Below, in pieces: positions 19,402 through 56,448 of a stretch of DNA of 64,000 nucleotides. The stretch spans positions 13,547 to 77,546 of the forward strand of contig JACPDY010000098.1 of assembly GCA_016183775.1 (NCBI GenBank). The letters are read 5' to 3'. The notes below the pieces were generated by a model. That model made no database searches and was not told the DNA's origin. It saw only the letters and a list, made by a program, of their open reading frames with translations. This DNA is from Bacteroidota bacterium. Its GTDB lineage: Bacteria; Bacteroidota; Bacteroidia; JABDFU01. The first letter of the stretch is position 1. The number at the start of each line of letters is the position of its first letter. Made by a program: the position numbers and the translations under genes.

Positions 19402-19402
19402 T

Positions 19403-34157: not shown

Positions 34158-34997
34158 ATGGTAAAATCTTTTTATACACTGGGAGTCGACGTAGGAAGTA
34201 ATTTTATAAAGGTGGCTCTTGTGGACTACTCTGAGAGTCCAAAAATCATCGACAAGCATACAGAAAAGATACGAAAACGGAATCCTACAACTGTTGCAGA
34301 TGAGATGATTCAAACAATCCTTCAGAAAAACGGATTGAAGGATTGTGATATTGCATATTTGGCTTCAACCGGTGAGGGAGATTTAGTAAAGCGTAAACGC
34401 GGTCATTTTTATGGAATGACGACACATTCCAAGGGCGCAAACTTTTTTTTTCCTGACGCAAAGTCTGTGGTAGATATGGGGGCATTATATGTCCGTGCAG
34501 TAAAAGTTGCAGAAGATGCGAGGGTACTGGATTATAAGATGACCGGTCAATGCGCATCCGGGTCTGGTCAATTCGTTGAAAACATTTCCCGCTATCTGGG
34601 TTTATCTATTGAGGAAGTGGGAGATGTTTCTCTCATGGCCGATGAAGCTGAAGTTTCATCAGGGATTTGCGCGGTACTCGCGGAAACAGATGTTATCAAC
34701 ATGGTTTCACGTGGTATAACTACTCCTAATATTATTAAAGGAATTCATATTTCTATAGCAGGAAGAATTATCAAGCTTCTGAGTTCACTCAAGGCAGAAT
34801 CGCCTATAATCCTGACGGGGGGTATGTCTCTTAACAAAGGAATGATTCAGGCTATCGAAGAGCAATTAAAGGAGACGGGGAAGAAATTTGTCATTAAAAC
34901 TCATTCCGATGCTATTTATGCAGGGGCCATTGGTGCTGCATTATGGGGAGGATTCAGACATATTAAACTGAAAGAAAAGCAAGCTGTAATATCATAA
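34158..34997 (+). CDS. BadF/BadG/BcrA/BcrD-type ATPase (small activase, BcrD/HgdC-sized).
   Basis: LGVDVGSNFIKVALV, then MTGQCASGSGQF cluster-binding Cys pair. 279 aa. Confidence 0.85.
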   Translation: MVKSFYTLGVDVGSNFIKVALVDYSESPKIIDKHTEKIRKRNPTTVADEMIQTILQKNGLKDCDIAYLASTGEGDLVKRKRGHFYGMTTHSKGANFFFPDAKSVVDMGALYVRAVKVAEDARVLDYKMTGQCASGSGQFVENISRYLGLSIEEVGDVSLMADEAEVSSGICAVLAETDVINMVSRGITTPNIIKGIHISIAGRIIKLLSSLKAESPIILTGGMSLNKGMIQAIEEQLKETGKKFVIKTHSDAIYAGAIGAALWGGFRHIKLKEKQAVIS

Positions 34998-36742
34998 TGC
35001 AATATTTAAGGTCAGAAAAAGATTTAGGAGATGTGATTCCGAATATCGCATTGATGCTGGAAAGGAATGTTGTCCATTTTCCGGACAACATCGTTTATGC
35101 GGAGAAACAAAATGGGAGCTATAATGGCATTACCTGGAAGATCTTTTTTGAGCAAATTCAGAATATTGCAGTCAACCTGACCAATATCGGATTTAAAAAG
35201 GGAGATAAAATGGTTATGTTTTCTCCAAACAGACTTGAGATGCTTGAGCTTGAATTGGCAGTTATGGCCAGTGGGGGGATAAGTGTTCCTATTTTTGCAT
35301 TCTTTCATAAGGAAACAGCGGAATTTCTTATAAAACATTCCAGCGCGCGGTTTTTAGCTGTAGCCGGGGAATTACAACTAAGCAGGACTGGTTCCGGAAT
35401 TCCTCTTCATAAAATTATTTCCTTCGATAAACTTGAAAAGCATAATCGCCGAAATCTTATTCCCTTTAGTGAACTGCTATCCCCTCAAAGCGAGGCTACA
35501 TCCTCTTTATTATTTAATGCGCCGGCCAATGATATTTGTCTGAACATGTATACTTCCGGTACCATGGGAACTCCGAAATGTGTGCAGCTGACTCACCAAA
35601 ATATACTATCTCAGCAAGCCGCGCTGAAAAAGATATGGGAAGTAAATGAAAAAGATCGCTTTCTCTCCTATTTACCATGGCATCACAGCTTTGGAGGCAT
35701 TTTTGAGCGATTCTCTGCACTTTATAATGGGGCTGCTATATACCAGGAATCGGGGTATGGGAAAGATTCAAAGGTTATAATGGAAAACTGGAAACTCGTT
35801 CAGCCCAACTTATTTTTTAGTGTTCCTAAAGTATACCAATCACTTGTGGATCTCACTAAAGCAGATAAAGAAGCTGAAAAGTTATTTTTTCATTCCGGCT
35901 TAAAATTCATTTTTACAGCCGCTGCCGCCCTTCCTCAAAAAATTTCTGAAGAGTTTGAACGCAAAAGAATTCCGGTGATAGAAGGGTGGGGCCTGACAGA
36001 AACTTCACCCTGCTGCACACTTACCGATCCTGCCCTGAAAAGAGAAAATGGTATAGTTGGAAAACCCATTCCCGGAGTTTGTTTGCGGATAACTGATGAT
36101 GGAGAAATCCAGGTAAAGGGGCCCAATGTAATGAAGGGATATTATAATAATGATGAAGCAAACAAAGAAGCCTTTACTGATGACGGCTGGTATTGCACAG
36201 GCGACATAGGAAAATTTACCCCCACCGGATTAAAACTTATATCACGCAAGGACAGGATTTTTAAACTGACTAATGGAGAAAAGGTTATTCCATCGGAAGT
36301 GGAGGAGCTTATTCAAACTAAATGTCATTATATCACTTTTGCTGTCATTTGTGGAAAGGGCAAAGAATATCCGGTCGCACTGTTGTTTCCAAACAAAAGG
36401 GCTCTGGATAATCCCAGTTATGAAATCTCACCGGACGAGGGCTGTTTTTGTCCCAAAAGCATGAATGAATTAGGAAAATGTCTTCAAGGTTGTTTGCACG
36501 ATGTTAATTGCGGGCTCACACAAAAATTTTCTAAAGTAAAATATGCAATGATTATTGATGATGAGTTGACAATCGAAAATAATACACTTACTCCATCAAT
36601 GAAAGTGGCACCCAATAAGTTAATGGAAACATATAAAGCTCACATCGAAAATCTTTATGGTGGGAAAAACTTCCTGAGCGGGGATGTTTATATCATAAAA
36701 CTGGAGACAGAAGGAGTGATGAAGGAAAAACACAGCATGTAA
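34997..36742 (+). CDS. AMP-dependent acyl-CoA synthetase/ligase.
   Basis: YTSGTMGTPKCV AMP-binding motif, and GWGLTETS and GDIGKF motifs. 581 aa, FadD-like in size. Confidence 0.85.
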   Translation: MQYLRSEKDLGDVIPNIALMLERNVVHFPDNIVYAEKQNGSYNGITWKIFFEQIQNIAVNLTNIGFKKGDKMVMFSPNRLEMLELELAVMASGGISVPIFAFFHKETAEFLIKHSSARFLAVAGELQLSRTGSGIPLHKIISFDKLEKHNRRNLIPFSELLSPQSEATSSLLFNAPANDICLNMYTSGTMGTPKCVQLTHQNILSQQAALKKIWEVNEKDRFLSYLPWHHSFGGIFERFSALYNGAAIYQESGYGKDSKVIMENWKLVQPNLFFSVPKVYQSLVDLTKADKEAEKLFFHSGLKFIFTAAAALPQKISEEFERKRIPVIEGWGLTETSPCCTLTDPALKRENGIVGKPIPGVCLRITDDGEIQVKGPNVMKGYYNNDEANKEAFTDDGWYCTGDIGKFTPTGLKLISRKDRIFKLTNGEKVIPSEVEELIQTKCHYITFAVICGKGKEYPVALLFPNKRALDNPSYEISPDEGCFCPKSMNELGKCLQGCLHDVNCGLTQKFSKVKYAMIIDDELTIENNTLTPSMKVAPNKLMETYKAHIENLYGGKNFLSGDVYIIKLETEGVMKEKHSM

Positions 36743-36744: not shown

Positions 36745-37962
36745 ATGTATGAGATAAAAGCCACACAGGAATTAAAAAAGGTAATGCGCGATTATTTTCT
36801 GTCGCTTGATAGCGGTGAAAATAAAATTGCGTGGTGTACAAGCGTGGGTCCTGCAGAATTACTCAGGTCATTTGGCTTTGAGGTTTATTTTCCTGAAAAT
36901 CATGGAGCGCTTTTAGGTGCAACACGTACTGCAATGGATCTTATTCCTGAATCCGCCAAACTAGGCTATTCCAATCATATATGCTCATATACTACTGCTG
37001 ATATTGGCTCGTACCTGGCAAAAATATCTCCGCTTAAAAATCAATATGGGATGAAAGGTGTACCAAAGCCGGATTTGATTGTATACAATACCAATCAGTG
37101 CCGTGAGGTTCAGGATTGGTTCGGTTTTTTTGCAAAAGAATTTAATTGCCCTATTGTTGGAATTCACCCTCCGAGATATATAGATGACGTGTCAAAAGAA
37201 GAGATAGCGCTTGTTGTTGACCAGCATAAAAAAATAATTACACTATGTGAAAAAGTCAGTGGTAATAAATTTGATATTGACAGGTTCCGTGAAACGCTGA
37301 GATTAAGTAAAGAAGCGACCCATCTTTGGCAGGAGGTCCTTAAAACTTCCACGGCATCACCTGCGCCAATCAGCTTTTTTGACGGAGTGATTCACATGGG
37401 TCCCATTGTAGTGATGCGGGGAACAGAACAAGCAATAGATTATTACACTTTACTTCTGAAGGAGCTGAAAGAGAATGTGATGAACAAGAATGGGGTCGTA
37501 AAAAACGAACAATTACGTATTTTTTGGGAGGGAATGCCAATTTGGGGAAAAATCCGGATGCTTTCAGATTTATTTGTTCAGAATAATACCGCTGTTGTTG
37601 CTTCCACATATTGCAGCAGTTGGGTGTTTGATGAGTTTGATGAAAGGAACCCATTCGAATCGTCAGCACTTGCGTATACAAAAATTTTTATAAACAGAAG
37701 TGAGAAGGCAAAATTAAAAATGTTAAAACTCTGGCTTGACGAATACAAGTGTGATGGTATTTTATTTCATGATACGAAAACATGCTTTAATAATTCGAAT
37801 GCAAAATTCGGAATGCCATTACGTTTAAAGGAAGAAACAGGTATGCCCTACCTTATTATAGAAGGAGATTTATGTGATTTGAGATTTTTCTCGGAAGGAC
37901 AAAGCATCACAAAAATTGAAACGTTTATTGAGCAAATTGAATCTTCAAAAATACATTCGTGA
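36745..37962 (+). CDS. Second 2-hydroxyacyl-CoA dehydratase / benzoyl-CoA reductase family component (HgdB/BcrC-like paralogue).
   Basis: 405 aa, with the same architecture as the 24424 gene. WCTSVGP N-terminal region and conserved Cys (HICSYT, YCSSW, TKTCFN). Confidence 0.7.
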   Translation: MYEIKATQELKKVMRDYFLSLDSGENKIAWCTSVGPAELLRSFGFEVYFPENHGALLGATRTAMDLIPESAKLGYSNHICSYTTADIGSYLAKISPLKNQYGMKGVPKPDLIVYNTNQCREVQDWFGFFAKEFNCPIVGIHPPRYIDDVSKEEIALVVDQHKKIITLCEKVSGNKFDIDRFRETLRLSKEATHLWQEVLKTSTASPAPISFFDGVIHMGPIVVMRGTEQAIDYYTLLLKELKENVMNKNGVVKNEQLRIFWEGMPIWGKIRMLSDLFVQNNTAVVASTYCSSWVFDEFDERNPFESSALAYTKIFINRSEKAKLKMLKLWLDEYKCDGILFHDTKTCFNNSNAKFGMPLRLKEETGMPYLIIEGDLCDLRFFSEGQSITKIETFIEQIESSKIHS

Positions 37963-39788
37963 GTAACAAACAAAAAATAAAAGCAGGTGTTATAGGCTTA
38001 GGTCCTGTGGGGATGATACTGGCTGTTCATTTACAGGAATCGGGATGTGATGTCCTGATTTGCGACAATGACAGGATCAAGATTAATCAGATAAAGAATG
38101 AGGGAATTAAACTTGAAAATATAATTCAAAAGAGAGAAAAATTTGAACACATTTATGCTTCCACTTCAGAATTGCTTGATCAAAATCCTGATTATGTTTT
38201 TATTGCTTTGAAATCCTACCAGGTGGAAAGTGTTCTTAAAGATCTCCCGGAAGATAATACTTCCATTTTCATTAGTGCCCAAAATGGAATTGACATAGAG
38301 AATATAATTGCGGAAAAGGTAGGGGCCGCCAGGACTATGCGATTAGTTATCAATTTCGCAGGTAATTCACTGTCGCCTAATTGTGTTAAAGTAACTTTTT
38401 TTAATCCCCCAAATTATCTGGCTTGCCTTGACGACAATAAAAAAGAAAGCTCCGAAGTTATTTCCGATTTGTTTAATAAAGTGGGTCTTCAAACAAAGGC
38501 AATTACTCCTTTCGAATTGACCAGGTGCGCATGGGAGAAGACCATTTTAAATGCTTCCCTCAGTCCGCTCTGCGGAATCGGGCGATTTACGATGGCTGAG
38601 GCAATGGCATTTCCGGATACAATTGAACTTGTGGAACAAATTATTGAAGAAGCCATTGAAGTGGCGGAAGCCGAAAAAATCCGCTTCCCTGATGATTTTA
38701 TCCGAAATTGCCTTCGCTATCTGAAAAATGGCGGAAATCACTATCCATCACTCGCCGGCGATTTAATGAACAAGCGACAAACAGAGATTGATTATATGAA
38801 TGGAAAAATTGTAGAGTACGGAAGGAAGCATTATATCCGGACTTCGCTCAATCTTTCGATGGTGAATATGGTAAAAGCCATGACACATAAAACGCTTCTT
38901 TCCCAATTTTCATCCAGGCCGTCAATCTCACAGAAGCCGATACTGAATATACAAAACAAAATCAACCCTAAAGGAAGTTGTTTCCTTGGCATTGATTTAG
39001 GTTCTGCATATACAAAGTTGACAGTTATTGATGAAAATAAAAATGTTGTATTCCGCTATACATTAAAGACGCTAAACCGTGATAAAATAGCCTCCAGGCA
39101 TATTATTAATGCTATACACGAGGAATTTCCCGTCAAATATAGTTGTGCTACCGGTTACGGAAGAAAAACATTTACAGATGCTGATATTGTAAAGACCGAG
39201 ATTAATTGTGCGGCCCTGGGGGCTAATGAATTTGTACCCGGAGAAAAGAACATACTTGATATTGGAGGTGAAGATATTAAGATGATTCATTGCGACACTC
39301 AGGGACGGGTGGAAAATTTTTATCTCAACGATAAATGTGCTGCCGGAACAGGTGTTTTTCTGATTGAAATTGCAGAACGTGCAGGAATCGACATAAACGA
39401 GATGAGTCGCCTCGCAGCGCAGTCAGAATACAAACAGGAATTAAACAGTTTTTGTACTGTATTTGCAAAAACTGAAATCATGAAATGGATTTTTGACGGG
39501 CAGCCGATTGAGAATCTCGCGAAAGGAATCTATCTCTCTATCGGGAATCGCATAGCCAAAATGAGAATACATCCTTCTGTACCTATTGTCATGATTGGCG
39601 GGGTAGTTGCATACCATCCATATTTAAAAATATTACTGGAGGAAAAGTTGGGAAGGCAGATTGTCGTCTTGGAGCATCCTCAGCATATTGTTTCATTCGG
39701 AGCAGCACTTATTGCCCGCGAACAGCTTCTGATGCAGACCAAACAGGAATCATTCTCAGAATCACAAAAAATAATTAAAAAATTATGA
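37959..39788 (+). CDS. Fusion protein: N-terminal 2-dehydropantoate 2-reductase (ApbA/PanE)-like NAD(P)H oxidoreductase plus C-terminal BcrAD/HgdC-type activase ATPase.
   Basis: N-terminus AGVIGLGPVGMILAVHL (GxGxxG), then a KPR C-terminal domain. Linker is followed by LGIDLGSAYTKLTVI ... NDKCAAGTGVF activase motifs. Confidence 0.8.
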   Translation: MSNKQKIKAGVIGLGPVGMILAVHLQESGCDVLICDNDRIKINQIKNEGIKLENIIQKREKFEHIYASTSELLDQNPDYVFIALKSYQVESVLKDLPEDNTSIFISAQNGIDIENIIAEKVGAARTMRLVINFAGNSLSPNCVKVTFFNPPNYLACLDDNKKESSEVISDLFNKVGLQTKAITPFELTRCAWEKTILNASLSPLCGIGRFTMAEAMAFPDTIELVEQIIEEAIEVAEAEKIRFPDDFIRNCLRYLKNGGNHYPSLAGDLMNKRQTEIDYMNGKIVEYGRKHYIRTSLNLSMVNMVKAMTHKTLLSQFSSRPSISQKPILNIQNKINPKGSCFLGIDLGSAYTKLTVIDENKNVVFRYTLKTLNRDKIASRHIINAIHEEFPVKYSCATGYGRKTFTDADIVKTEINCAALGANEFVPGEKNILDIGGEDIKMIHCDTQGRVENFYLNDKCAAGTGVFLIEIAERAGIDINEMSRLAAQSEYKQELNSFCTVFAKTEIMKWIFDGQPIENLAKGIYLSIGNRIAKMRIHPSVPIVMIGGVVAYHPYLKILLEEKLGRQIVVLEHPQHIVSFGAALIAREQLLMQTKQESFSESQKIIKKL

Positions 39789-41047
39789 AAGGGTATCATC
39801 ATAAACAAAAGGGAGTCGGAATAATCTTTGATAATATTTTTCTGGTAAATGGAGCCCGTACTCCGTTCGGAAGGTATTGTGGGACACTTTCACATGTTTC
39901 TCCGACCGATTTGGGTATATATGCAAGCCGTGGAGCCCTCGACAGGTGCACCTTATCGCCTAATGACATTGATCAAATAATTGTTGCCAACATCGGTCAA
40001 AGTTCCTGCGATGCCTATTTTCTGCCCCGACACATTGGATTATTCACCGGTATTCCCACTGAAGTACCGGCGCTGATGGTGCAAAGAATTTGTGGATCCG
40101 GATTTGAGGTGATTATAACCGCATCGGAACAGATTACTCTTAATAAAGCACAGGCCGTGTTATGCACAGGAACCGAAAATATGTCATTGGCACCTACTGT
40201 AAGTTTTGGAAACAGGATGGGATATCCTTTAGGGCGCCCGGTATTTAAAGACATGCTTTGGGAAGCTCTTGATGATACTGCTGCAGGCTATCCAATGGGA
40301 TATACAGCAGAAAATGTAGCTAAAAAGTATAATATTACCAGGAAAGACACGGATGAGTACGCGAAGCTTTCGTTTGACAGGGCAGTTATTGCTTCCGAAA
40401 GAGGAGTTTTTAAAGAAGAGATTGTTCCCATACAAAATTCCGTATTTGAAATCGAGGGATTAAAATCAAGGAAAATAACTCTTCCAAAAGGAATTGCTTC
40501 ATTGGCTTCTGATGAACACATCCGGGCCACAACCTTTGAAGCATTGTCGAAACTTCCTTCTGTTTTTAGTGATGTCGGCGTTCTTACTGCAGGAAATTCA
40601 AGTGGGATTGTTGATGGAGCTGCATCGGTTATTATCGCGGATCGTTTATTCATAGAGAACCGGGCATTAAAACCAATTTCAAGAGTTGTTGCCGCTGCAA
40701 GTTGTGGGATTGATCCGAAAATTATGGGACTCGCACCTGTTCCTGCTATCAGGCTCCTGCTTGAGATGACAGGGTTGAAGATAGATGACATAGGTCTTTT
40801 TGAGATTAACGAAGCGTTCTCAGCTCAGGTTATTGGATGCGAACGCGAACTGAATATAGACAGGAGTATACTTAATGTTAACGGAGGAGCAATTGCCATA
40901 GGTCACCCGCTGGCAGCTACTGGCGGACGCTTATCACTTACAATTTCAAAAGAAATGACCCGGAGGAAAGTGAAATATGGCATTGCCTCAGCCTGTATCG
41001 GCGGTGGACAAGGAACAGCCCTACTATTTGAAAATGTAAATTATTGA
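39785..41047 (+). CDS. Acetyl-CoA C-acyltransferase (thiolase).
   Basis: Thiolase motifs NGARTPFGRY, RICGSGFE (active Cys) and C-terminal GIASACIGGGQGTAL. Confidence 0.9.
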   Translation: MKGYHHKQKGVGIIFDNIFLVNGARTPFGRYCGTLSHVSPTDLGIYASRGALDRCTLSPNDIDQIIVANIGQSSCDAYFLPRHIGLFTGIPTEVPALMVQRICGSGFEVIITASEQITLNKAQAVLCTGTENMSLAPTVSFGNRMGYPLGRPVFKDMLWEALDDTAAGYPMGYTAENVAKKYNITRKDTDEYAKLSFDRAVIASERGVFKEEIVPIQNSVFEIEGLKSRKITLPKGIASLASDEHIRATTFEALSKLPSVFSDVGVLTAGNSSGIVDGAASVIIADRLFIENRALKPISRVVAAASCGIDPKIMGLAPVPAIRLLLEMTGLKIDDIGLFEINEAFSAQVIGCERELNIDRSILNVNGGAIAIGHPLAATGGRLSLTISKEMTRRKVKYGIASACIGGGQGTALLFENVNY

Positions 41048-41050: not shown

Positions 41051-41242
41051 ATGAGCCGTTGGAAATACCCATTTAATACAAAGGCGCATGCTGAGAAATA
41101 CCTGAAACAGGCAGAGCAGGAGACAGGAAAAAGATGTTTCATTCGCCAGGTTTCAACCAGAGCGCATGTGTTTAAAATATTTTCATCTGAGACTGAATAT
41201 ATAGAATATCAAAAGAAAAAAAGTACAGGACATGGGCACTAA
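41051..41242 (+). CDS. Small hypothetical protein (63 aa) filling the thiolase-ADH gap.
   Basis: Fits exactly between neighbouring genes and overlaps the next start by 11 bp. No recognisable motif. Confidence 0.3.
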   Translation: MSRWKYPFNTKAHAEKYLKQAEQETGKRCFIRQVSTRAHVFKIFSSETEYIEYQKKKSTGHGH

Positions 41243-42296
41243 TCGATTATATCAATGGCAAATGGTGGAAACCGATCAGGAATTTCGCTTAATAGAAAGC
41301 AATTTACCTGAAGTGAAAAACGGAGAGGTGCTTGTAAAAGTTTCCGGATGCGGGGTCTGCCACACTGATTTAAGCTTTTGGCACTCGGGTGTTCAAACCA
41401 AGCATGCATTGCCACTTACACTCGGACACGAAATCAGTGGAGTAGTGATTGCCGGCAATAAAAACTGGCTAAAGAAAAAAATAATCATTCCGGCCGTTCT
41501 ACCCTGCGGAGAATGCGAATTATGTAAAAAGGGCCGAAGCAATATTTGTCGCAACCAGCTAATGCCTGGAAATGATTTTCATGGAGGCTTTGCTTCACAC
41601 ATTAAGGTTCCTTCAAAGTTTTTGTGTCCTGTTTCTGAAAATATTTTAAAAAAGTATTCGCTCGAACAATTAGCAGTAATTGCGGATGCTATATCAACTC
41701 CTTACCAGGTAGTGGAAAAATCTGAACTGGAAGCGGGCGACCTGGCTATTGTAATCGGGGTTGGCGGAGTCGGTTTGTATGGGGCGTTGATTGCAAAGAT
41801 ATTCGGAGCAAAAGTTATCGCTCTTGATCTCAGTGACGAGAAGCTGAACATTGCTTTGAATAACGGGGTAGATGCCATTCTTAATATAAAAGGAATGGAC
41901 ATAAAAGCGATTAAGGAAAGGGTGAAAGAAATTGCAAAGAGTATCAAAGCCCCGAAGATTGGCTGGAAGATATTTGAGATAAGCGGTACAAAGGCCGGTC
42001 AGGATCTTGCATTTAATCTGATCACTTTTACTTCAACGCTTTCTATAGTTGGTTTCACAATGGATAAAGTAGAAGTAAGACTGAGTAATTTAATGGCTTT
42101 CGATGCGAAACTAATCGGAACATGGGGATGCAGAGCTGAATTATATCCTAAAGTTCTGGACCTAATTGAAAGCGGGAAACTTGAAATTTCCGGATTTGTT
42201 CAGACATTCCCTATGTCAAAAATAAATGAAGTATTTAAAAATACATTGGAGCACAAATACAATAAGCGTTCCGTCCTTGTCCCTGATTTTAATTAA
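41232..42296 (+). CDS. Zinc-dependent MDR alcohol/hydroxyacyl-CoA dehydrogenase (Had-like).
   Basis: GHEISGVV catalytic Zn motif, CGECELCKKGRSNIC structural Zn Cys, and GVGGVGLYGALIA Rossmann fold. Confidence 0.85.
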   Translation: MGTNRLYQWQMVETDQEFRLIESNLPEVKNGEVLVKVSGCGVCHTDLSFWHSGVQTKHALPLTLGHEISGVVIAGNKNWLKKKIIIPAVLPCGECELCKKGRSNICRNQLMPGNDFHGGFASHIKVPSKFLCPVSENILKKYSLEQLAVIADAISTPYQVVEKSELEAGDLAIVIGVGGVGLYGALIAKIFGAKVIALDLSDEKLNIALNNGVDAILNIKGMDIKAIKERVKEIAKSIKAPKIGWKIFEISGTKAGQDLAFNLITFTSTLSIVGFTMDKVEVRLSNLMAFDAKLIGTWGCRAELYPKVLDLIESGKLEISGFVQTFPMSKINEVFKNTLEHKYNKRSVLVPDFN

Positions 42297-42312: not shown

Positions 42313-43413
42313 ATGGAAAATTTAAAAAGTCACAAACTTGTTGATGTAAATTACAAGGAAATTATTTTTGAAAAAAGGGCTTGCCTGGATAAGGAAGGGA
42401 TACCTGTCAAAGATTTATACAACGCATGGATAGTTCTGAACAATCCAAAGCAATTCAATTCGTATACTACACAGGCCATAAAGGAAGTAATTCTTGCATT
42501 CGGAGAGGCTTCAAATGACAGAAGTATTGTTGCGGTAGTATTTACATCCGTTGGTGATAAAGCATTTTGCACAGGAGGAAATACAAAAGAGTACGCGGAA
42601 TACTATTCCGGAAATCCACAGGAATATTCACAATACATGCGCCTCTTTAATGATATGGTGAGTGCCATTTTAAAATGTGAGAAGCCGGTTATATGTCGCG
42701 TAAACGGAATGCGTATAGGTGGTGGACAAGAAATTGGAATGGCCTGCGATTTCAGTATTGCGGGCGATATGGCACGATTCGGCCAGGCAGGACCCAAACA
42801 TGGAAGCGCACCTATCGGGGGTGCTACTGATTTTCTTCCTCTTTTTATAGGTGTGGAACGTGCTATGATGTCGCTTACATTATGTGAGCCATGGAGTGCG
42901 CATCAGGCATATTATTATGGAGTTATCAGTGAAATAGTACCTGTACTCAGGCATAATGGAAAATTTATTTCTAATCCAATGGTGGTCACGGATAGGATCG
43001 TTGATGAATTCGGACGGCTTGTTTTTGGTACATCCAAAACAGGTGACGCATTAAAAGCGGCGAAGGAAATTATAGCAGCATCGGAAATAGATTTAAGTAT
43101 GCTGGATTCGGCAGTGAATAAACTCATAGCTAAACTCCTGAATACGTTCCCCAATTGTACGAATAAAACTATTTCGGAAGTACGTAAGTTCAAATTGGAG
43201 CATTGGGATAAAAACAAGGAAAGCAGCAGGGAATGGCTCGCATTAAATATGATGACCGAAGCAAAAGCCGGCTTTAAAGCATTTAATGAGGGGCCTAAAG
43301 AAAACCGCGAAGTTGATTTTATTAAACTCCGGCAATTGCTTGCCAATGGCCATGAATGGAATGAAGAATTACACAGAATAATTTCTCCACAATATCAAAA
43401 AGTAAATTCTTGA
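42313..43413 (+). CDS. Crotonase-superfamily enzyme with a long C-terminal extension (candidate ring-hydrolysing 6-oxocyclohex-1-ene-1-carbonyl-CoA hydrolase, Oah/BamA-like; MenB-like alternative).
   Basis: Enoyl-CoA hydratase core (FCTGGN...GGGQEIGMACDFSIA). At 366 aa it is ~100 aa longer than ordinary ECH, matching Oah size. Confidence 0.6.
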   Translation: MENLKSHKLVDVNYKEIIFEKRACLDKEGIPVKDLYNAWIVLNNPKQFNSYTTQAIKEVILAFGEASNDRSIVAVVFTSVGDKAFCTGGNTKEYAEYYSGNPQEYSQYMRLFNDMVSAILKCEKPVICRVNGMRIGGGQEIGMACDFSIAGDMARFGQAGPKHGSAPIGGATDFLPLFIGVERAMMSLTLCEPWSAHQAYYYGVISEIVPVLRHNGKFISNPMVVTDRIVDEFGRLVFGTSKTGDALKAAKEIIAASEIDLSMLDSAVNKLIAKLLNTFPNCTNKTISEVRKFKLEHWDKNKESSREWLALNMMTEAKAGFKAFNEGPKENREVDFIKLRQLLANGHEWNEELHRIISPQYQKVNS

Positions 43414-44189
43414 ATATGGAAAAGATAAAAATTGAATTTAAAAATGATAATTCTGTCGCACGGATAATTCTCGATGACGGCAAAGGGAATGTGTTGGACC
43501 ATGTTATGATGGAAGAGTTAAAACAGATTCTGAATTCATTTAAGAGCAGTTCTCAAATAAAGCTGATTACCATGGAAGGAAATGGAAAGCATTTCTCATT
43601 TGGAGCCAGTATTGAGGAGCATAAGAGGGAATTCGCCGCGACAATGATTCGCGAATTTCATCAATTGTTTTATATTATTCGTGATTTAACAATACCTATG
43701 GCTGCCAAAATCAGCGGAAGTTGTTTAGGAGGAGGGTTAGAACTCGCGCTCATGTGCAACTTCATGTTTGCCGACAAGACTGCCAGGCTTGGACAGCCCG
43801 AGATTTCGCTGGGAGTATTTCCTCCTCCCGCTTCCATACTTCTTCCGGAGAAAATCGGATTGGCAAAAGCCGAGGATCTGCTTATTACCGGAAGAATAAT
43901 TACCGCTGAGGAGGCAAAGTCAATCGGGCTTGTAAATGAATTATTTGATACGAGAGATACTATGGATTCAGGGGTTGAAAAATGGGTGGAGAGTTATATC
44001 CTTCCCAAAAGCGCGTCTTCGCTTCATTTTGCTGTAAAAGCTGTAAGAATAAAATTTAATCATGTTATCAGTAATTTCTTACCGCAGTTAGAATCAATCT
44101 ATGCAAATCAACTGATGCAAACACATGATGCGAATGAAGGCATCAATTCCTTTTTGGAGAAGAGAAAACCGGTTTGGAGCAATAATTAA
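43410..44189 (+). CDS. Enoyl-CoA hydratase (Dch-sized, 259 aa).
   Basis: Crotonase motifs GNGKHFSFGASIEE and GGGLELALMCNFMFA. Confidence 0.85.
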   Translation: MNMEKIKIEFKNDNSVARIILDDGKGNVLDHVMMEELKQILNSFKSSSQIKLITMEGNGKHFSFGASIEEHKREFAATMIREFHQLFYIIRDLTIPMAAKISGSCLGGGLELALMCNFMFADKTARLGQPEISLGVFPPPASILLPEKIGLAKAEDLLITGRIITAEEAKSIGLVNELFDTRDTMDSGVEKWVESYILPKSASSLHFAVKAVRIKFNHVISNFLPQLESIYANQLMQTHDANEGINSFLEKRKPVWSNN

Positions 44190-44200: not shown

Positions 44201-46213
44201 ATGAAAACTATTAAAACAGTTGGTGTTGTTGGTGCAGGAACTATGGGTTCCGCCCTTGCACAAAAATTCTTACAGGAAGGGTTCAAAGTAATTCTTGCCG
44301 ATCGCGCTATAAATTTCGCTGAAAAAGGATTGGAAATGATCAGGAGCTCGCTTAATCAGGGCTTGCAGAAATACATTTTTACATATGAACAGCTAAGTGA
44401 ATACTTGTCCAATTTAAAAATAACAGATACGCTTACAGATTTAAAAGGATGTGATTTGATTGTTGAAGCAATTTATGAAAACTTCAACGCTAAAACTACA
44501 CTATTTAAAGAACTTTGTGTCATAATTCCTCCCGACACAATTCTTGCGACTAACACATCTTCATTTTCTGTTACGGAATTATCCGCTGCCGTAAGCCACC
44601 CGGAAAGATTTATCGGACTGCATTATTTTTATCATGCAGCCAAAAACCGGTTGGTGGAAATTATTCCGGGCGATAAAACGTCTGAAGAGACTACCCAAAC
44701 GGCATACCGGTTTTCTATCTTGTCGGGTAAAGATCCTATCTATAGCCGGGATGCTTATGGATTTGTAGTCAACAGGTTTTTTGTTCCATGGCTGAATGAA
44801 GCAGTTCGCTTATACGAAGAAAATGTAGCATCCATTGAACAAATTGAAACTGTTTGTAAAGAGCTCTTTGGAATAACAATGGGTCCATTTGAATTGATGA
44901 ATGTGACCGGAATCCCAGTCGCATATCATGCGGAAAAGACTCTTGAAGTATTCGGTAATTTATATAAAGTTGCGAAAGCACTGGAGAAACAAACCAAAGA
45001 AAATCAACTATGGACATTGAAAATTGCCGGCGAAGAAGCTGATAAGACCATTCCCATTAAAGTGAAGCAGGAAATTAAAGATAGAATGCTGGGTGTTATA
45101 TTTTTTATCTGCTCACAAATTCTGGATGAAAAAATATGCAGTGCGGCAGAGATAGATCGGGGTGCTAAAATCGGGCTAAAATGGAAAAAGGGTCCTATTG
45201 AATTGATGAAAGAACAGGGCGAAGACGAAGTGACATGTATCATAGTTAAATTAATTGACCGGTATAATATGAAATTACCGGATTCAATCGGGAAGAAATA
45301 CTGGACACCAAATTATGTAAAACTAAAAAGCAAAGGAACCATTGCAGTTATTACAATGGATCAGCCCGAAAATCTGAATGCTTTAAGCGAAGAAACTGTT
45401 AAGCAGTTGGGAGAATGTTTCAATAAAGCCGAAAGGAATCCGCTTGTTAAAACTGTTTTTATAACCGGCTCCGGAAAGGCATTTGTTGCAGGGGCGGACA
45501 TTAAATTCTTTGTTAAGAATATAAAAAAAGAAAGGATTTGCGACATAGAGACGTTTACCGAATTCGGCCAGAAAATTTTTGACAACATTGATAATTCAAG
45601 CAAAAAAGTAGTTGCCATTATTAATGGATTGGCATTGGGTGGAGGACTTGAGCTTGCGCTTTGTGCTGATGTAATACTTGCGTTGCCAAAGGCCCAAATG
45701 GCATTTCCTGAAACAGGTATAGGAATTTATCCAGGTCTTGGAGGCACACAACGTTCTGTGAGGAAAATTGGGAGAGGGCTAAGTAAATACCTTATTCACA
45801 CCGGTAAAATGCTTTCTGCCACAGAAGCAGAAGAAATAGGACTTGTTGACAAAATTATTTCAAGAGAAGAAATGTTTTCTATACTATCAGGTGAGATAGA
45901 CGCTCCACTAATCAATAAGAAAAATATGAAGTCAGAATGGATAGCTATAAGAGATTTCTTCGAGAAAAATTCCCTGAAGGCAATTCTTGATAAAAACTAT
46001 TCCGATGCTGGATTGACTTCTGAATATGCCGAAAAGCTTGCGAAAACAGTTCGATTCAAGGCGCCAATTGCGTTAAAACTTGCCGATCAACTTATTGATG
46101 AAGCGAAAGGTTGCACGTCAGAACTGGAACACTTGCGTGAAATATTTTCGACATCCGATGCTTTATTGGGGCTTACCTCCATTGGTGAAAAAGTAAATTA
46201 CCTCGGAAAATAA
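44201..46213 (+). CDS. Bifunctional 3-hydroxyacyl-CoA dehydrogenase (N-terminal) / enoyl-CoA hydratase (C-terminal).
   Basis: VGVVGAGTMGSALAQ NAD-binding N-terminus. C-terminal crotonase (ITGSGKAFVAGADI, GGGLELALCADV). Confidence 0.9.
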   Translation: MKTIKTVGVVGAGTMGSALAQKFLQEGFKVILADRAINFAEKGLEMIRSSLNQGLQKYIFTYEQLSEYLSNLKITDTLTDLKGCDLIVEAIYENFNAKTTLFKELCVIIPPDTILATNTSSFSVTELSAAVSHPERFIGLHYFYHAAKNRLVEIIPGDKTSEETTQTAYRFSILSGKDPIYSRDAYGFVVNRFFVPWLNEAVRLYEENVASIEQIETVCKELFGITMGPFELMNVTGIPVAYHAEKTLEVFGNLYKVAKALEKQTKENQLWTLKIAGEEADKTIPIKVKQEIKDRMLGVIFFICSQILDEKICSAAEIDRGAKIGLKWKKGPIELMKEQGEDEVTCIIVKLIDRYNMKLPDSIGKKYWTPNYVKLKSKGTIAVITMDQPENLNALSEETVKQLGECFNKAERNPLVKTVFITGSGKAFVAGADIKFFVKNIKKERICDIETFTEFGQKIFDNIDNSSKKVVAIINGLALGGGLELALCADVILALPKAQMAFPETGIGIYPGLGGTQRSVRKIGRGLSKYLIHTGKMLSATEAEEIGLVDKIISREEMFSILSGEIDAPLINKKNMKSEWIAIRDFFEKNSLKAILDKNYSDAGLTSEYAEKLAKTVRFKAPIALKLADQLIDEAKGCTSELEHLREIFSTSDALLGLTSIGEKVNYLGK

Positions 46214-47498: not shown

Positions 47499-48224
47499 TT
47501 AGTTATTCTTTGATTTATGCCCCTCAGAATGAGCCCTTGATACGCGTATATGTTTCCTTGGCCAGTTCCAGATCACCTGTTGGTAGCTTCTCCATAAATA
47601 ATCCACGGGATAAACCAGGAAGTGAATAAACCTTGTGAAAGGAATCAGGCCAATCAATAAAAATGCAGAGATCACATGGACTTTCAGTGACAATGAATTC
47701 ACACTTGAAACAGCGTCGATCTGCGGATCAAAAACAAATATAGAGCGCAGGTATGGTGAAAGGAATGCTGCAAACCATGATGATCCCCAACGGCTGTGGT
47801 ATGCCACCAATAAACCGGAAATGATCTGGATAAGCAAAACAAGAAATACAACCACATCCATTTTACTGGTTACCATTTGTACTCTTCTTGTAGTGAGCCT
47901 TCTGTATACAAGCATAATCAATCCAAGACAGGCCGATAAGCCAAAGGCAAAGGCTGTGATTTCAAGGATTAGTAATCGCACCGGCTGTCCATTCCATGCA
48001 ATTATAGCACGGGGGAAAAGGAAAGCGACAAGGTGTCCAAAAAACAGGAAGAACAATCCCCAGTGAAACGGCTGGCTTCCAATGAATAACTTTCTTCCTT
48101 CAAGAAATTGCGTTGAAAGTGAAGAAACGGTAAAACCTTTATTTATGTATCGGTAAATTGAACCGATCAGAAAGATAGCCAAACATGCGTAAGGCAAAAC
48201 GACGTACAAGAGAATATTTGTCAT
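47499..48224 (-). CDS. narI: Respiratory nitrate reductase gamma subunit (dihaem cytochrome b).
   Basis: Five TM helices with conserved His (FHWGLFFLF.GHL, HSRWG, HFLVYP). 241 aa. Confidence 0.9.
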   Translation of the reverse strand: MTNILLYVVLPYACLAIFLIGSIYRYINKGFTVSSLSTQFLEGRKLFIGSQPFHWGLFFLFFGHLVAFLFPRAIIAWNGQPVRLLILEITAFAFGLSACLGLIMLVYRRLTTRRVQMVTSKMDVVVFLVLLIQIISGLLVAYHSRWGSSWFAAFLSPYLRSIFVFDPQIDAVSSVNSLSLKVHVISAFLLIGLIPFTRFIHFLVYPVDYLWRSYQQVIWNWPRKHIRVSRAHSEGHKSKNN

Positions 48225-48226
48225 AA

Positions 48227-48931
48227 TTAATCGAGTTTAAGTTCATTAACTAATTTATTTACTTCAATATTTACACTTTGTTTTGCAAAAAATGAGTTGT
48301 GATGCTGTATATCTACTACAGGATCGGGAACTCCGCTAAAACTCACATTTTCAAAATCTTTCTTTAGTACAATCAGCAACGCAGAGAAAACATTCCTGTA
48401 TACATTGCCTTGATTCAACTCCGGCTGAATAATGGCTCTGTGAAGCTTTTTTAAGATTTTCATTTTCAATTCCACTCTCGCTTGCTTAAATTCACCGATC
48501 ATTTTTTCCAAACCAGGAATAAGAATTTTTACTGCGAGTTCATCTAATAACGACTGGTCGCTTGTTTTTGTGTAAAGGGTTAGCATATTGCAAATGTTAT
48601 CTGAAAGATCAGTTCCGCAATCATTTCCGGCCCGCAATTGCTCTTCCTGCATATGCAACAAGAAAGCGCCTCTTTTATAATCTTCCCCGAAGATTACAAA
48701 CCCAAGATCGAGATAGCAGATAGGCTGCACATCAAATGTCCTTGTATACAACTCTTCTCGTTCATCCTGGCTGTGAGCAGACATATAGTCAACAAAAGGC
48801 TTTAATTCGAGCGCTGCATCGGGATAATATTCCTCCAGTATTGCCATGCATTTATTTGCCATTTCAGTGTAGTCCTTGTTTGGATACCTTAGCAGATCAG
48901 CAAAAGCAATATAGTGCTTATAGTTTCTCAT
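48227..48931 (-). CDS. narJ: Nitrate reductase molybdenum cofactor assembly chaperone (NarJ/TorD family).
   Basis: Position between narH and narI. NarJ-like acidic helical protein (LYTRTFDV.P...YLDLGF). Confidence 0.8.
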   Translation of the reverse strand: MRNYKHYIAFADLLRYPNKDYTEMANKCMAILEEYYPDAALELKPFVDYMSAHSQDEREELYTRTFDVQPICYLDLGFVIFGEDYKRGAFLLHMQEEQLRAGNDCGTDLSDNICNMLTLYTKTSDQSLLDELAVKILIPGLEKMIGEFKQARVELKMKILKKLHRAIIQPELNQGNVYRNVFSALLIVLKKDFENVSFSGVPDPVVDIQHHNSFFAKQSVNIEVNKLVNELKLD

Positions 48932-48933
48932 AT

Positions 48934-50424
48934 TTATAGCCCCCTTGCAGGTGTTTCTTTAAATCCAAATCCTGTGTTACCTTTTACGTCAGCTGTATTT
49001 TCAAGCATTTCGATAGATTCCTCGCGGTGTGCAGGAGGAATAACAAAGCGTTCGTCAAAAGTTGCCAGCGCTGTTAGCCTGAAAATCGCGTCAGCAGTTT
49101 CTTTATCCATGTTCACCTCATTCATCGCCATTGAAATTTCCGCGGCATTTAAATCACCTACAGTAACTCCTCTTCTATGTAATCTCACTGCCATCAATCT
49201 CTTCATAACATCTACCACCTGTCCGGTATTTCCTGCAGAGAATAGAGACGCAAGGTATTTCATCGGTAAACGATTACTTTCTACCCCGTTCCAAAGTGAT
49301 TTGGACGTTGTATTATAAACTCCATCTGATACTGTTGCCATTGTTGGCAACAAAGCCGGCACATAGAATAGATTAGGTAATGTTCTGAACTCAGGGTGCA
49401 ATGGCAAAGCGAGTTTCCATACTTTAACAAATTTGTACACGGGAGAGTTTTGCGCCGCGGTAATTGTTGAATCGGCAATCCCATTTAGCTTAGCTTGTTT
49501 GATCACTTCCGGATCAAACGGATCAAGATATATATCCATTTGTGCGTTTACCAATTGGTCTTCCGGAGCTGCTGCCGCTGCTTCAATTTTATCCGCATCA
49601 TATAACATTACTCCTAAGTAACGAATGCGGCCTACACAAGAGTGGAAGCATGCAGGAGCTTGACCTGATTCTAACCTCGGATAGCACAATACACATTTTT
49701 CCGATTTGCCGGTATTCCAGTTGTAATAGCTTTTTTTGTAAGGACAAGCTGTTACACACATTCTCCATGCGCGGCAACGTTCCTGATTAATAAGTACGAT
49801 CCCGTCTTCACCTCTTTTGTAAAGAGCCCCCGATGGACAAGAAGCTACGCAGGCCGGATTTAAACAGTGATTGCATATTCTTGGTAAATAATGGAATGTC
49901 ATTCTTTCCAATTGAAACATTGCTTCTTGTTCAGCAGAACTAAGCTTTTGAAGATTTACATCCTGACGGGCATAGTCAATTGAACCACCCATATCATCAT
50001 CCCAATTCGGACCTGATTGCACATCCATATGCTCACCCGTAACAAGAGAAACAGCTGTTGCAGTAGGTTGATCATCACCCTCCGGAGCTGTGAACAGATC
50101 CTGATACTTGTATGTCCACGGCTCATAATAGTCGTCAAGTACAGGCATATGTGGGTTGTGAAAAATATTTTTCAAACCTTTGAACTTGCCGGCCCCTTTC
50201 AGGGAAACGGTATCTCCGTTTTTTTCCCAACCACCTTTGTATATATCCTGGTTTTCCCACTTGGTAGGATAACCGGTTCCTGGCTTTGTTTCCACATTGT
50301 TCCACCACATGTATTCGGCACCTTTCCTGTCAGTCCAGATATTTTTGCAGGCAATAGAACAAGTATGACACCCGATACATTTATCAAGGTGAAAAACCAT
50401 TGAGACTTGAGATCTTACGTCCAT
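48934..50424 (-). CDS. narH: Respiratory nitrate reductase beta subunit (Fe-S).
   Basis: Four Cys clusters (CIGCHTCSIACKN, CNHCLNPACVASCP, CRAWRMCVTACPY, CVLCYPR...C) and the canonical NarH N-terminus. Confidence 0.95.
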   Translation of the reverse strand: MDVRSQVSMVFHLDKCIGCHTCSIACKNIWTDRKGAEYMWWNNVETKPGTGYPTKWENQDIYKGGWEKNGDTVSLKGAGKFKGLKNIFHNPHMPVLDDYYEPWTYKYQDLFTAPEGDDQPTATAVSLVTGEHMDVQSGPNWDDDMGGSIDYARQDVNLQKLSSAEQEAMFQLERMTFHYLPRICNHCLNPACVASCPSGALYKRGEDGIVLINQERCRAWRMCVTACPYKKSYYNWNTGKSEKCVLCYPRLESGQAPACFHSCVGRIRYLGVMLYDADKIEAAAAAPEDQLVNAQMDIYLDPFDPEVIKQAKLNGIADSTITAAQNSPVYKFVKVWKLALPLHPEFRTLPNLFYVPALLPTMATVSDGVYNTTSKSLWNGVESNRLPMKYLASLFSAGNTGQVVDVMKRLMAVRLHRRGVTVGDLNAAEISMAMNEVNMDKETADAIFRLTALATFDERFVIPPAHREESIEMLENTADVKGNTGFGFKETPARGL

Positions 50425-50489
50425 AATTTTAAAATTTAGATTTTAGATTTGAGCGGGAGGTTTTGTCTCACATCTCACATCTATTTATA

Positions 50490-53400
50490 TTAAAATTCTA
50501 CTTTCTCCATTCTTCTTACTAAAACATGTGTGTCACGGTTTACTCCTACCGGTCCCCAGTAATTGAAGTGGTAAGAAAACTGTCCATAACCACCAGCCAT
50601 TAAACTTGGTTTTAAGTGAATGCGGGTAAAGCTATTGTGCCCTCCGGCTCTTCTCCCGCCACGTTCTTGCGATTTTGGAACAGTATATGTCCTTTCGGGT
50701 GAGTGATAAACAATACAAACACCGTTCGGAATACGAGCACTTACACAAGCCCGGGTACAATAAACACCATGGTCGTTATAAACTTCAACCCAATCGTTAT
50801 CTTTTACTCCAATTGATGCTGCATCTTCTTCACTCATCCAACAAGGTTCCATACCACGGGATAGAGTTAACATACGCAATGTATCCCCGTAAGTTGAGTG
50901 AATGTGCCATTTACCGTGAGGTGTTAACACATTAAACATTTTTGCTTTCCCATCATTAATTGTCTTTCTTAAATCACCATACGCTTTTGGTGTTGGGGAT
51001 GGTTTATAAGTTGGAAGGTGTTCTCCAAACGCAATATACATATCGTGATCAAGATAAAATGCCTGACGTCCGGTTAGTGTTCTCCATGGAACCCAGCAAT
51101 CCACATTATAAGTGTATGCACAATATGCTCTTCCATTGTCCATTAACCCTGACCAAAGCGGTGAGTTATTGTAACGTCTTGGCTGCGATTGTAAATCCTT
51201 ATAATCGATACGAACATCTTTGCTTCCGATACCATGTTGAACGATTGGCATGCCTATTTTTTTCTCCATGTTCTCATAAGCACGAACCGTCAACTTTCCA
51301 TTTGTTAAAGAAGAAAGCCTCAATACTGCATTCACTGCTTCAACATCTTCCTTCAAAGAAGGATATTCAACACCATTAACTTTTTGCACATGACGCTTGT
51401 CCTCTCCCATTTCCTTGTATACATCATCCGCCATAAAGTTTACACCATGAGCTCCCAATGTATTGGTATTCAGATTCGGACCTAAAGCAATATATTTGTT
51501 ATAAATCTGAGTATAATCTCTTTCAACAATTGCAATTTTGTGCATTGTTTTTCCAGGAATAGGCTCACACTCCCCTTTATACCAATCCAGTAATTTTGGT
51601 TGTGAAATCTCATCCACACTATCATGTGACAACGGTATGTTCACAACATCTTTTACAGGAGTTGGCATATAACCTTTTGCCATTTCACTTACTGTTTTTG
51701 CAAGCAATTGAAATATCTGCCAGTCGCTTTTCGACTCCCACACCGGTGCAACTGCGGCTGATAACGGGTGAATGAAGGAATGCATATCAGTAGAATTGAT
51801 ATCTGCCTTCTCGTACCACGATGCTGTTGGAAGAACTATGTCAGAATATAGTGCAGAAGTATCCATTCGGAAATTGATATCCACAATCAGATCCATTTTT
51901 CCCTTTGGTGCTTCCCTCCATAATATTTCTGTTACTTTATCCTGAGCAACTTCATCCGCAATTTTATTTGTGTGCGTACCTAAATAGTGGTCCAGCATAT
52001 ACTCATGTCCTTTTGCGCTGGCCATTAACGCATTTCCTCTCCAGATAAACCAGTTACGAGGAAAATTCACTTCGTTGTCCGGGTCAGCACAGGAATACTT
52101 TATTTCCCTTGATTTCAGTTTTTCAACTACATAATTTTTAATCTCATCATCCGTCTTGGCTCCAACTGCTGCTGCATCCGTAGCTATTGTTAAATTATTT
52201 TTATCATACTGTGGATAAAAAGGCATCCAACCATTGCGAACCGCCATTGCAACCATATCTGCTGTGTGCAAATTTCCCAATTTACTTCCCGCAGGAATGC
52301 TGTTGTATTCAGCCTGGTTACCATCATACCTCCATTGGTCGGAATTCATGTAGTGCCATATAGGAGCCTGCTGCAAACGATTGGCGCCTTGCCAGTCTTT
52401 AGCTGCCATAATTGTTCCCCATGAATCAACCGGTGCAAGTTTTTCCTGGCCTACATAGTGATTCATCCCGCCCCCATTTACACCATTGCAGCCGGTAAGC
52501 ATTTGGGTCATAATTGCAGAACGATACATCAGGTTATTATGGAACCAGTGGCAAATTGCAGCACCAACAATCACCATACATTTTCCTTTTGTAATTTCTG
52601 CGGTGCTACCCCACTCGCGTGCAAGTTGAAGAACTGTTTCCTGGCCAATTCCGGTAAATATTTCCTGCCATGCCGGAGTGTATGCCTGATTTTTGTCGTT
52701 ATAATCTTTAGGGTATTCTCCAGGCAATCCACGACCTACGCCATATTGGCCAAAAGTCAAGTCGTAAACGGTAACAGTCGGAATTCTTTTGCCATCAGCA
52801 GTTTCCACATACTTAACAGGAACTCCGCGTACTGATTTTTTATTTAAACCGAATTCAGTAAACTCAACTTGTAACACATCATCACTTTTTCCAAGGAAAG
52901 TTAATGTTGGGTCAAATTCTTCATTTGTTTCCCCATCTTCGAATTTAAGGTTCCAGTTACCTATTTTACCTTTATCCCAGCGTTGACCCATTGAACCTTT
53001 TGGCATGACCGGCTTTCCGGTTTTACTATCAACATTCAGAAATTTCCAATCACCATTCTCTGTATTTTTATATTTTGCAAGTCGGTTAGCTCTTACCAGT
53101 TTCATTGGAAGATAATGATCGCCCTGCTTTTCCAATTCAACAAGGAACGGACAATCTGTGTAACGCTTTACATAATCAATAAAGTAAGGCACCTGCCTGT
53201 CGGCATGGAATTCTTTAAGAATTACATGAGTAACTGCCATCCAGAATGCGCCATCGCTGCCGGCATGTACCGGAATCCACTGGTCAGCATGCTTAGCCAC
53301 CATACTAAAGTCCGGCGACATAACCACTGTTTTAGTTCCATTGTGTTTTGATTCAGAGAAAAAGTGAATATCTGGTGTACGTGTCATACCAAGGTTAGCA

Positions 53401-54113: not shown

Positions 54114-54141
54114 AGTTATTTGATTTTAATATTCGTTACGA

Positions 54142-55008: not shown

Positions 55009-55134
55009 GTTATACATGTTTGAAAGTTTCATATTTCTTTTATCTGTCTTCATAGTAATTGAGATATTATCTTTTAAAGAACCTGTGAATAACATTACCT
55101 GCAACAAATGTATTTGCGATAACAATATTCAACT

Positions 55135-56387: not shown

Positions 56388-56404
56388 TAATTCTGAAGTT
56401 ATTT

Positions 56405-56418: not shown

Positions 56419-56448
56419 AAATAATACTTACAAAATTCAAATTTAGTG

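Follow-up and report, generated by a model that had tools for sequence, protein, structure and literature searches.

A 64,000-nucleotide stretch of contig JACPDY010000098.1 (positions 13,547 to 77,546 of assembly GCA_016183775.1, a Bacteroidota bacterium; hereafter the window) carries, at 42313..43413 on the forward strand, an uninterrupted open reading frame of 366 amino acids with an ATG start and a TGA stop codon. This gene very probably encodes Oah/BamA, the 6-oxocyclohex-1-ene-1-carbonyl-CoA hydrolase (or hydratase) that opens the ring in the anaerobic benzoyl-CoA pathway; the host is an uncultured member of the Bacteroidota, probably one that respires nitrate. The assignment draws on a family profile, on GenBank identity and on a structural model. 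The predicted protein scores 591.2 bits (E = 7e-178) on NCBIfam model TIGR03200, the curated equivalog for 6-oxocyclohex-1-ene-1-carbonyl-CoA hydratase/hydrolase with a cutoff of 464.45 bits, and it aligns with this profile from end to end (residues 5-354 on positions 2-356 of its 360); score and full-length alignment together place the predicted protein in the family. The next-best NCBIfam families all remain far under their own cutoffs and align only with residues 38-212. The crotonase core itself is intact, with a match of 137 bits to Pfam ECH_1 (PF00378) over residues 39-211, and it provides the characteristic features of the superfamily, the spiral fold and two glycines whose backbone NH groups form the oxyanion hole. 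The protein is 100% identical to GenBank entry MBI2271192.1, [quoted passage not shown] where MAG stands for metagenome-assembled genome, and its neighbors are deposited as MBI2271174 to MBI2271194, under names that include Had, BcrA, BcrC and BcrD.

The oah gene is one of a series of closely spaced, co-directional genes, which begins with a thiolase (acetyl-CoA C-acyltransferase, 39785..41047; 380 bits on TIGR01930, cutoff 241) and continues with had (41232..42296), oah, a dch-like gene (43410..44189) and a gene for a 670-residue fusion of 3-hydroxyacyl-CoA dehydrogenase and enoyl-CoA hydratase (44201..46213; Pfam 3HCDH_N, 3HCDH and ECH_1). The had product, 6-hydroxycyclohex-1-ene-1-carbonyl-CoA dehydrogenase, is a zinc-type medium-chain dehydrogenase/reductase by Pfam and scores 445.1 bits on TIGR03201, above the cutoff of 338.65; its GenBank entry MBI2271191.1 bears the same name. 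The dch-like gene encodes 259 amino acids, and cyclohexa-1,5-diene-1-carbonyl-CoA hydratase (Dch, TIGR03189) is its best NCBIfam match; translation of this gene probably begins at the ATG at 43416, two bases beyond the stop codon of oah, to which the start is closely coupled. The Dch-like hydratase retains both catalytic glutamate motifs, GGGLE and GQPE, and is 37-46% identical to proteobacterial proteins in the same position. The dehydrogenase-hydratase fusion, to judge by its domains, probably serves the beta-oxidation of 3-hydroxypimeloyl-CoA. A preliminary description, made from the letters of this DNA, had pointed to a candidate ring-opening hydrolase of Oah/BamA type with an intact crotonase core, placed between a Had-like dehydrogenase starting at 41232 and a crotonase of ordinary enoyl-CoA hydratase size, in the had-oah-dch order of Thauera; the profile searches and the gene order bear out each of these points, and among the Oah/BamA, BadI and MenB models that it proposed for comparison Oah/BamA alone is exceeded.

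The window also holds the dearomatizing enzyme of the pathway, so that oah is linked to had, to a dch-like gene and to a benzoyl-CoA reductase. Three subunits of an ATP-dependent class I (Thauera-type) benzoyl-CoA reductase are encoded contiguously by bcrC, bcrB and bcrA (24424..28516, forward strand; NCBIfam), of which BcrC (461 bits, cutoff 421) and BcrB (697 bits, cutoff 487) exceed their cutoffs; GenBank uses the names BcrC and BcrA for these reductase genes. The fourth, bcrD (34158..34997, forward strand), is matched by TIGR02261 and named benzoyl-CoA reductase subunit D in GenBank; it lies 5.6 kb downstream, separated from the others by unrelated genes for a GlsA-like lyso-glycine-lipid acyltransferase, a second acyltransferase, a 905-residue TonB-dependent receptor and, on the opposite strand, a LuxR-type response regulator. 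A two-subunit 2-oxoacid:ferredoxin oxidoreductase resembling KorAB (9475..12395, reverse strand; 651 bits on TIGR03710, cutoff 483, and 262 bits on TIGR02177, cutoff 262) may supply the benzoyl-CoA reductase with reduced ferredoxin. Downstream of the aromatic-degradation operon, at a distance of about 1.3 kb and in opposite orientation, lie narG, narH and narI together with genes for a cytochrome c, a Crp/Fnr-type regulator and two major facilitator superfamily transporters, one of them fused to a universal stress protein (47499..59630); an open reading frame without family assignment (48227-48931) occupies the position of narJ. This gene set suggests an organism that respires nitrate and has a benzoyl-CoA pathway of the Thauera type. 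As a caveat, the enzyme activity of Oah, the roles of its catalytic residues and the use of nitrate as electron acceptor are properties that we infer.

In the reaction sequence that these genes would support, the class I benzoyl-CoA reductase (BcrCBA with BcrD) would convert benzoyl-CoA to cyclohexa-1,5-diene-1-carbonyl-CoA, the Dch-like hydratase would add water to this diene, and Had would oxidize the resulting 6-hydroxyl group to the ketone. Oah would then hydrate the remaining double bond of the ring and cleave a carbon-carbon bond hydrolytically, in a reaction of retro-Claisen type that yields 3-hydroxypimeloyl-CoA; beta-oxidation of this open-chain product could be carried out by the thiolase and the dehydrogenase-hydratase fusion.

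The predicted active site was read from alignments with E. coli MenB (4els), with the Dch-like neighbor and with the Oah family. The two oxyanion-hole glycines, Gly89 in the motif FCTGGN (codon 42577..42579) and Gly137 in the GGQEIGM block (42721..42742), align with Gly86 and Gly133 of MenB; the GGQEIGM block also contains Glu140 and the binding site of the bamA primer ASP1. Glu140 (GGGQE) aligns with the first catalytic glutamate of enoyl-CoA hydratases, which lies in GGGLE in the Dch-like neighbor, and MenB has a valine at this position; the second catalytic glutamate of enoyl-CoA hydratases is replaced by Gly160 in Oah (GQAG versus GQPE). Ser165 in the GSAP motif (Ser165-Ala166-Pro167, 42805..42813) aligns with MenB Ser161, and the position of the catalytic Asp163 in the GSFDGG loop of MenB is taken by Pro167 in Oah (GSAPIGG). 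Among 116 family members, with identities down to 37%, 40 positions are invariant, including Gly89, Gly137, Glu140 and Ser165, and Pro167 is kept in at least 90%. The invariant positions extend into the C-terminal half of the protein (Gly234, Asp265, Cys282, Arg291, Lys294, Trp308, Gly320 and Asp335); this half is therefore a region under strong constraint and not a loose appendage. A single glutamate of the hydratase type would fit an enzyme that first hydrates the double bond of the ring and then cleaves the beta-keto thioester.

With 366 residues, the protein falls within the range of full-length family members (349-398 amino acids, most of them 358-398), and it has the length (~360-380 residues) and the family-specific region of ~150 residues after the crotonase core that are expected of Oah/BamA. 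An AlphaFold model built on an alignment of 116 sequences, including a clade of ~50% identity, reached a predicted local distance difference test (pLDDT) score of 92; a model from a shallower alignment (48 sequences, all at least 79% identical; pLDDT 66) left the active-site loops disordered and was discarded. The accepted model aligns with the solved crotonases 3rrv_A over 251 of 253 residues and 3lke_A over 248 of 252, in agreement with Foldseek; since both are covered almost completely, a whole crotonase of ~250 residues appears to be embedded in the protein, with about 110 residues in addition. The preliminary description had counted ~100 extra residues and read them as a C-terminal extension; the amount and the general location hold, and the topology has to be revised, as the predicted structure shows no simple extension at the C-terminus. 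As read from the secondary structure of the model, the additional elements would comprise an N-terminal arm (residues 1-16), an excursion at ~212-243, additional helices and a short tail; six helices are predicted between residues 244 and 357, some of which are extra. The strand-rich excursion after the last core strand (residues 212-243, 42946..43041; pLDDT 95-97) is specific to the Oah family. The boundaries of these elements follow the predicted secondary structure and a deletion that occurs naturally in the homolog P0122 (349 amino acids), which lacks residues ~225-243 and thereby supports the excursion as an insertable element. At the sequence level, solved crotonases in the PDB align with Oah only as far as residue ~211-219, even when the family profile is used; the region beyond aligns within the Oah family and with no solved crotonase. 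A phmmer search with residues 285-366 against the PDB gave no match, and an hhalign comparison with a Dch alignment did align the tail region, with little visible similarity.

The Oah family is compact, with 134 clusters at 50% identity and E <= 1e-30, and many of its members from several phyla carry source names of the same enzyme. The best 120 relatives listed are all at least 80% identical to the window protein, and those that bear a name derive from Bacteroidia, Chitinophagaceae and Saprospirales MAGs; a search of a plasmid collection returned no match. When one genome per species was scanned, the best 80 loci, all from uncultured genomes, were taken for comparison; identity to the window protein is 70-86% in Bacteroidota MAGs, ~70% in Ignavibacteria, and 62-67% in Gemmatimonadota, Acidobacteria, and Alpha- and Betaproteobacteria (including MAGs of Magnetospirillum, Phaeospirillum and Rhodoferax). 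In a neighbor-joining tree, the window protein falls inside a Bacteroidota clade that is nested in a clade of the FCB (Fibrobacterota-Chlorobiota-Bacteroidota) superphylum; next to this FCB clade lies that of the proteobacterial proteins of Thauera type. A recent origin by horizontal transfer from Proteobacteria was considered and rejected, as the tree follows FCB taxonomy and the fraction of guanine plus cytosine in the oah gene string, 0.39, equals that of the rest of the window.

Gene order in these 80 loci was compared by tblastn with the window proteins. The order had-oah-dch recurs in most of them, across Bacteroidota, Ignavibacteria, Gemmatimonadota, Acidobacteria, and Alpha- and Betaproteobacteria; many loci without had or dch end close to oah. 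Two architectures stand out. In proteobacterial loci, korBA on the opposite strand adjoins had-oah-dch, which continues into bcrCBAD; this is the arrangement published for Thauera aromatica. The second architecture is found in Bacteroidota, Ignavibacteria, Fidelibacterota, Acidobacteria and Zixibacteria and is followed by the window; here the order is a CoA ligase (not in every case), a 2-hydroxyacyl-CoA dehydratase subunit (HGD-D), a ketopantoate-reductase-activase fusion, thiolase, had, oah, dch and the dehydrogenase-hydratase fusion, often with genes for a short-chain dehydrogenase/reductase (SDR) and a molybdenum hydroxylase thereafter. The thiolase gene precedes had in most Bacteroidota and Ignavibacteria loci, and the dehydrogenase-hydratase fusion follows dch in many loci of Bacteroidota and other FCB lineages. 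A promoter and terminator scan of the region 33.7-47.6 kb returned no better a number of matches than shuffled sequence, as is expected since Bacteroidota promoters are not of the sigma-70 type.

Compared with the characterized enzymes, Thauera aromatica Oah and the BamA proteins of Geobacter metallireducens and Syntrophus aciditrophicus, the window protein shares the full-length family model, the length, the had-oah-dch setting and the primer-site peptides, and, as in Thauera-type systems, a class I benzoyl-CoA reductase and a KorAB-like oxidoreductase are encoded along with it. It differs from them in its position on the Bacteroidota/FCB branch and in an AT-rich gene that is mismatched by the bamA primers; unlike the Thauera-type operon, the window has thiolase and the dehydrogenase-hydratase fusion on either side of had-oah-dch, and bcrCBAD does not follow dch.

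Several observations weigh against the assignment to Oah/BamA and its pathway, and they are best considered together. The PDB contains no Oah/BamA structure, and the roles of the active-site residues have accordingly been transferred by analogy. BcrA scores 436 bits, under its cutoff of 578, and BcrD 308.4 bits on TIGR02261, just under the cutoff of 312.85. A motif scan of the window found no gene for a small 2[4Fe-4S] ferredoxin, and no benzoate-CoA ligase of known type was found in the window. The closest proteobacterial homologs in the comparison are 62-66% identical and come from uncultured genomes, and no biochemical work on any Oah from Bacteroidota was found in the literature. Finally, the Dch-like protein reaches 224.4 bits on TIGR03189, under the cutoff of 292.5; its score does not place it in the equivalog, and its best match and its position agree with the Dch-like partner named in the preliminary description. 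To judge from its position in the operon and its best-matching family, this protein probably works as a Dch, and the FCB-type Dch looks like a distinct subgroup outside the current TIGR03189 model.

Some of these observations could also be accommodated by a paralog within the Oah family that performs the same chemistry on a different ring substrate, for example a methyl- or hydroxy-substituted 6-oxocyclohexenoyl-CoA, or an alicyclic-pathway intermediate tied to the genes upstream of the thiolase. The separate Bacteroidota/FCB branch, with 62-66% identity to the proteobacterial enzymes, the operon architecture unlike that of the Thauera type, and the sub-cutoff score of the Dch-like partner would all be compatible with such a shift in substrate; yet the TIGR03200 score lies well above the equivalog cutoff with an end-to-end alignment, the forty invariant positions across 116 members include Gly89, Gly137, Glu140 and Ser165, and the window encodes a canonical Had together with a class I benzoyl-CoA reductase, so that a paralog of this kind is considered unlikely. 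Much less probable still is a 2-ketocyclohexanecarboxyl-CoA hydrolase (BadI), as in the pathway variant of Rhodopseudomonas palustris. BadI is likewise a ring-opening crotonase that cleaves a ring carbon-carbon bond of a beta-keto acyl-CoA hydrolytically, and its model TIGR03210 is the second-best NCBIfam match; however, the window protein obtains only 119.9 bits against a cutoff of 467.6, the alignment is confined to residues 38-211, the profile has 256 positions for a protein of 366 residues, and the scores of the genes on either side point to Had and to a Dch-like protein rather than to BadH or BadK. BadI is not known to perform the hydration step. The family scores effectively rule BadI out.

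By sequence, the solved structure nearest to Oah is that of the 1,4-dihydroxy-2-naphthoyl-CoA synthase MenB (4els; 105 bits, rising to 133 bits when the family profile is used), and MenB structures (4els, 3t88) share with Oah the crotonase spiral core, the oxyanion-hole glycines and the serine at MenB position 161; nevertheless, an enzyme of MenB or carnitinyl-CoA dehydratase type is ruled out by family scores (116.5 bits on NF005637, cutoff 380; 106.7 bits on TIGR01929, cutoff 342.7) and by the missing aspartate, for which Oah has Pro167, and it retains a negligible probability. Oah is moreover ~80 residues longer than MenB and without detectable sequence similarity to it beyond residue 211-219, and no men genes were identified in the window. 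Carnitinyl-CoA dehydratase structures match Oah more weakly than MenB does, and no carnitinyl-CoA dehydratase model appears among the 25 best NCBIfam families; the preliminary description had named best homology to either of these two types as the result that would speak against Oah, and neither came out as the best match. Canonical enoyl-CoA hydratases (4lk5, 3rrv, and rat ECH 1dub) differ from Oah by Gly160 at the second glutamate position and by the absence of its about 110 extra residues. The identification as Oah/BamA is already available in GenBank, where the automated annotation names exactly this protein as 6-oxocyclohex-1-ene-1-carbonyl-CoA hydratase, and the interpretation is for this reason not new; the protein is an ordinary member of a well-known family. 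Beyond the existing annotation, only three points are added: a structural description of the additional residues, the mismatches to the bamA primers, and a conserved group of three genes upstream of the thiolase.

The bamA gene is surveyed by polymerase chain reaction (PCR) with the primers SP9 (CAGTACAAYTCCTACACVACBG) and ASP1 (CMATGCCGATYTCCTGRC), which target the peptides QYNSYTT and QEIGM (PMC3794298). Both peptide blocks, which the preliminary description had suggested looking for, are conserved in the window protein: QFNSYTT (residues 47-53, SP9 site 42451..42472), with a change from tyrosine to phenylalanine in the second position of the SP9 target, and QEIGM (residues 139-143, ASP1 site 42725-42742). 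The spacing of the two sites corresponds to the expected amplicon of 292 bp. Owing to the AT-rich composition of the gene, the primers match the DNA poorly; SP9 differs from the gene at 7 of its 22 bases, with three of these differences in the five bases closest to its 3' end, and ASP1 differs at 4 of 18. Loci of the FCB type have on average 3.4 mismatches to SP9 and 1.9 to ASP1, and 8 of 34 show at most two mismatches at each primer; the other loci average 1.5 and 0.5, and 37 of 46 stay within this limit. As a consequence of these mismatches, PCR surveys of bamA probably under-count the FCB-type clade.

The three genes upstream of the thiolase, all on the forward strand, encode an AMP-forming CoA ligase (34997..36742), a single HGD-D subunit (36745..37962) resembling the alpha subunit of 2-hydroxyacyl-CoA dehydratases, with the 2-hydroxyisocaproyl-CoA dehydratase alpha subunit as closest solved relative (3o3m_A, 174 bits), and a 609-residue protein (37959..39788) in which a domain of the ketopantoate reductase family is fused to an activase of HadI/BcrAD type (4eht_A, 140 bits); the GenBank name of the latter, "2-dehydropantoate 2-reductase," covers only one part of the fusion. 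The trio recurs in loci of Bacteroidota, Ignavibacteria, Fidelibacterota, Acidobacteria and Zixibacteria and was undetected by tblastn in all proteobacterial loci among the 80. It lies outside the textbook benzoyl-CoA pathway, which leaves its presence unexplained. Two dehydratase subunit genes are the normal condition, and a single one, as in this trio, is unusual.

Other genes of the window bear on aromatic compounds as well. A molybdenum hydroxylase resembling 4-hydroxybenzoyl-CoA reductase is encoded at 18469..22204 on the reverse strand (NCBIfam), with the gamma (2Fe-2S) subunit fused to the alpha subunit in one protein of 933 residues and with a separate FAD subunit; its best matches, TIGR03194 for alpha (819 bits versus 995) and TIGR03195 for beta (191 versus 405), are both under cutoff. 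Genes for an SDR, an XdhC-like protein and a MocA-like cytidylyltransferase follow the hydroxylase (18469-24371, reverse strand), and in several related loci the SDR and molybdenum hydroxylase genes come directly after the dehydrogenase-hydratase fusion. A gene resembling tryptophanase and tyrosine phenol-lyase (2719..4098) scores 674 bits on a tryptophanase subfamily model; the enzyme could supply or remove products of aromatic amino acids. The regions 342-4964 and 7144-9462 further contain genes for a U32 peptidase family protein (UbiU/TrhP-like), a thioesterase of the 4HBT fold, a second Crp/Fnr-type regulator, a radical SAM protein and a hemerythrin-domain protein.

Taken by their families, the parts of the trio would suffice to convert a 2-oxoacid to a 2-hydroxyacid, a 2-hydroxyacyl-CoA and finally an enoyl-CoA. 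It is conceivable, if doubtful, that the had-oah-dch genes of FCB bacteria belong to an undescribed route by which aromatic 2-oxo or 2-hydroxy acids originating from amino acids would be converted to benzoyl-CoA; this speculation is prompted by the presence of beta-oxidation genes, of the tryptophanase- or tyrosine-phenol-lyase-like gene and of the enzyme resembling 4-hydroxybenzoyl-CoA reductase. In such a route, the ketopantoate-reductase-like domain would act as 2-oxoacid reductase, the ligase would activate the acid with CoA, and the single-subunit 2-hydroxyacyl-CoA dehydratase, together with the activase of the fusion protein, would perform the dehydration, before beta-oxidation by the thiolase and the dehydrogenase-hydratase fusion; a speculative example would run from phenylpyruvate through phenyllactate and phenyllactyl-CoA to cinnamoyl-CoA.

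Bacteroidota are usually regarded as scavengers of polymers and peptides and not as degraders of aromatic compounds. A benzoyl-CoA pathway in this phylum is not new, given the published MAG evidence: a Flavobacteriales MAG expresses enzymes of benzoyl-CoA degradation under nitrate-reducing conditions (PMC8099898), and a potential for benzoyl-CoA degradation has been attributed to the Krumholzibacteriota, a lineage of the FCB superphylum (PMC10936416). The understanding of the Oah enzyme itself is unchanged, since the annotation by the Prokaryotic Genome Annotation Pipeline (PGAP) was already correct and expression of the pathway had already been published (PMC8099898). The window carries, within a single stretch of 64 kb, most of what anaerobic degradation of an aromatic ring needs; if the route from aromatic amino acids should prove true, it would mean that a peptide scavenger puts the benzoyl-CoA pathway to use under nitrate respiration.

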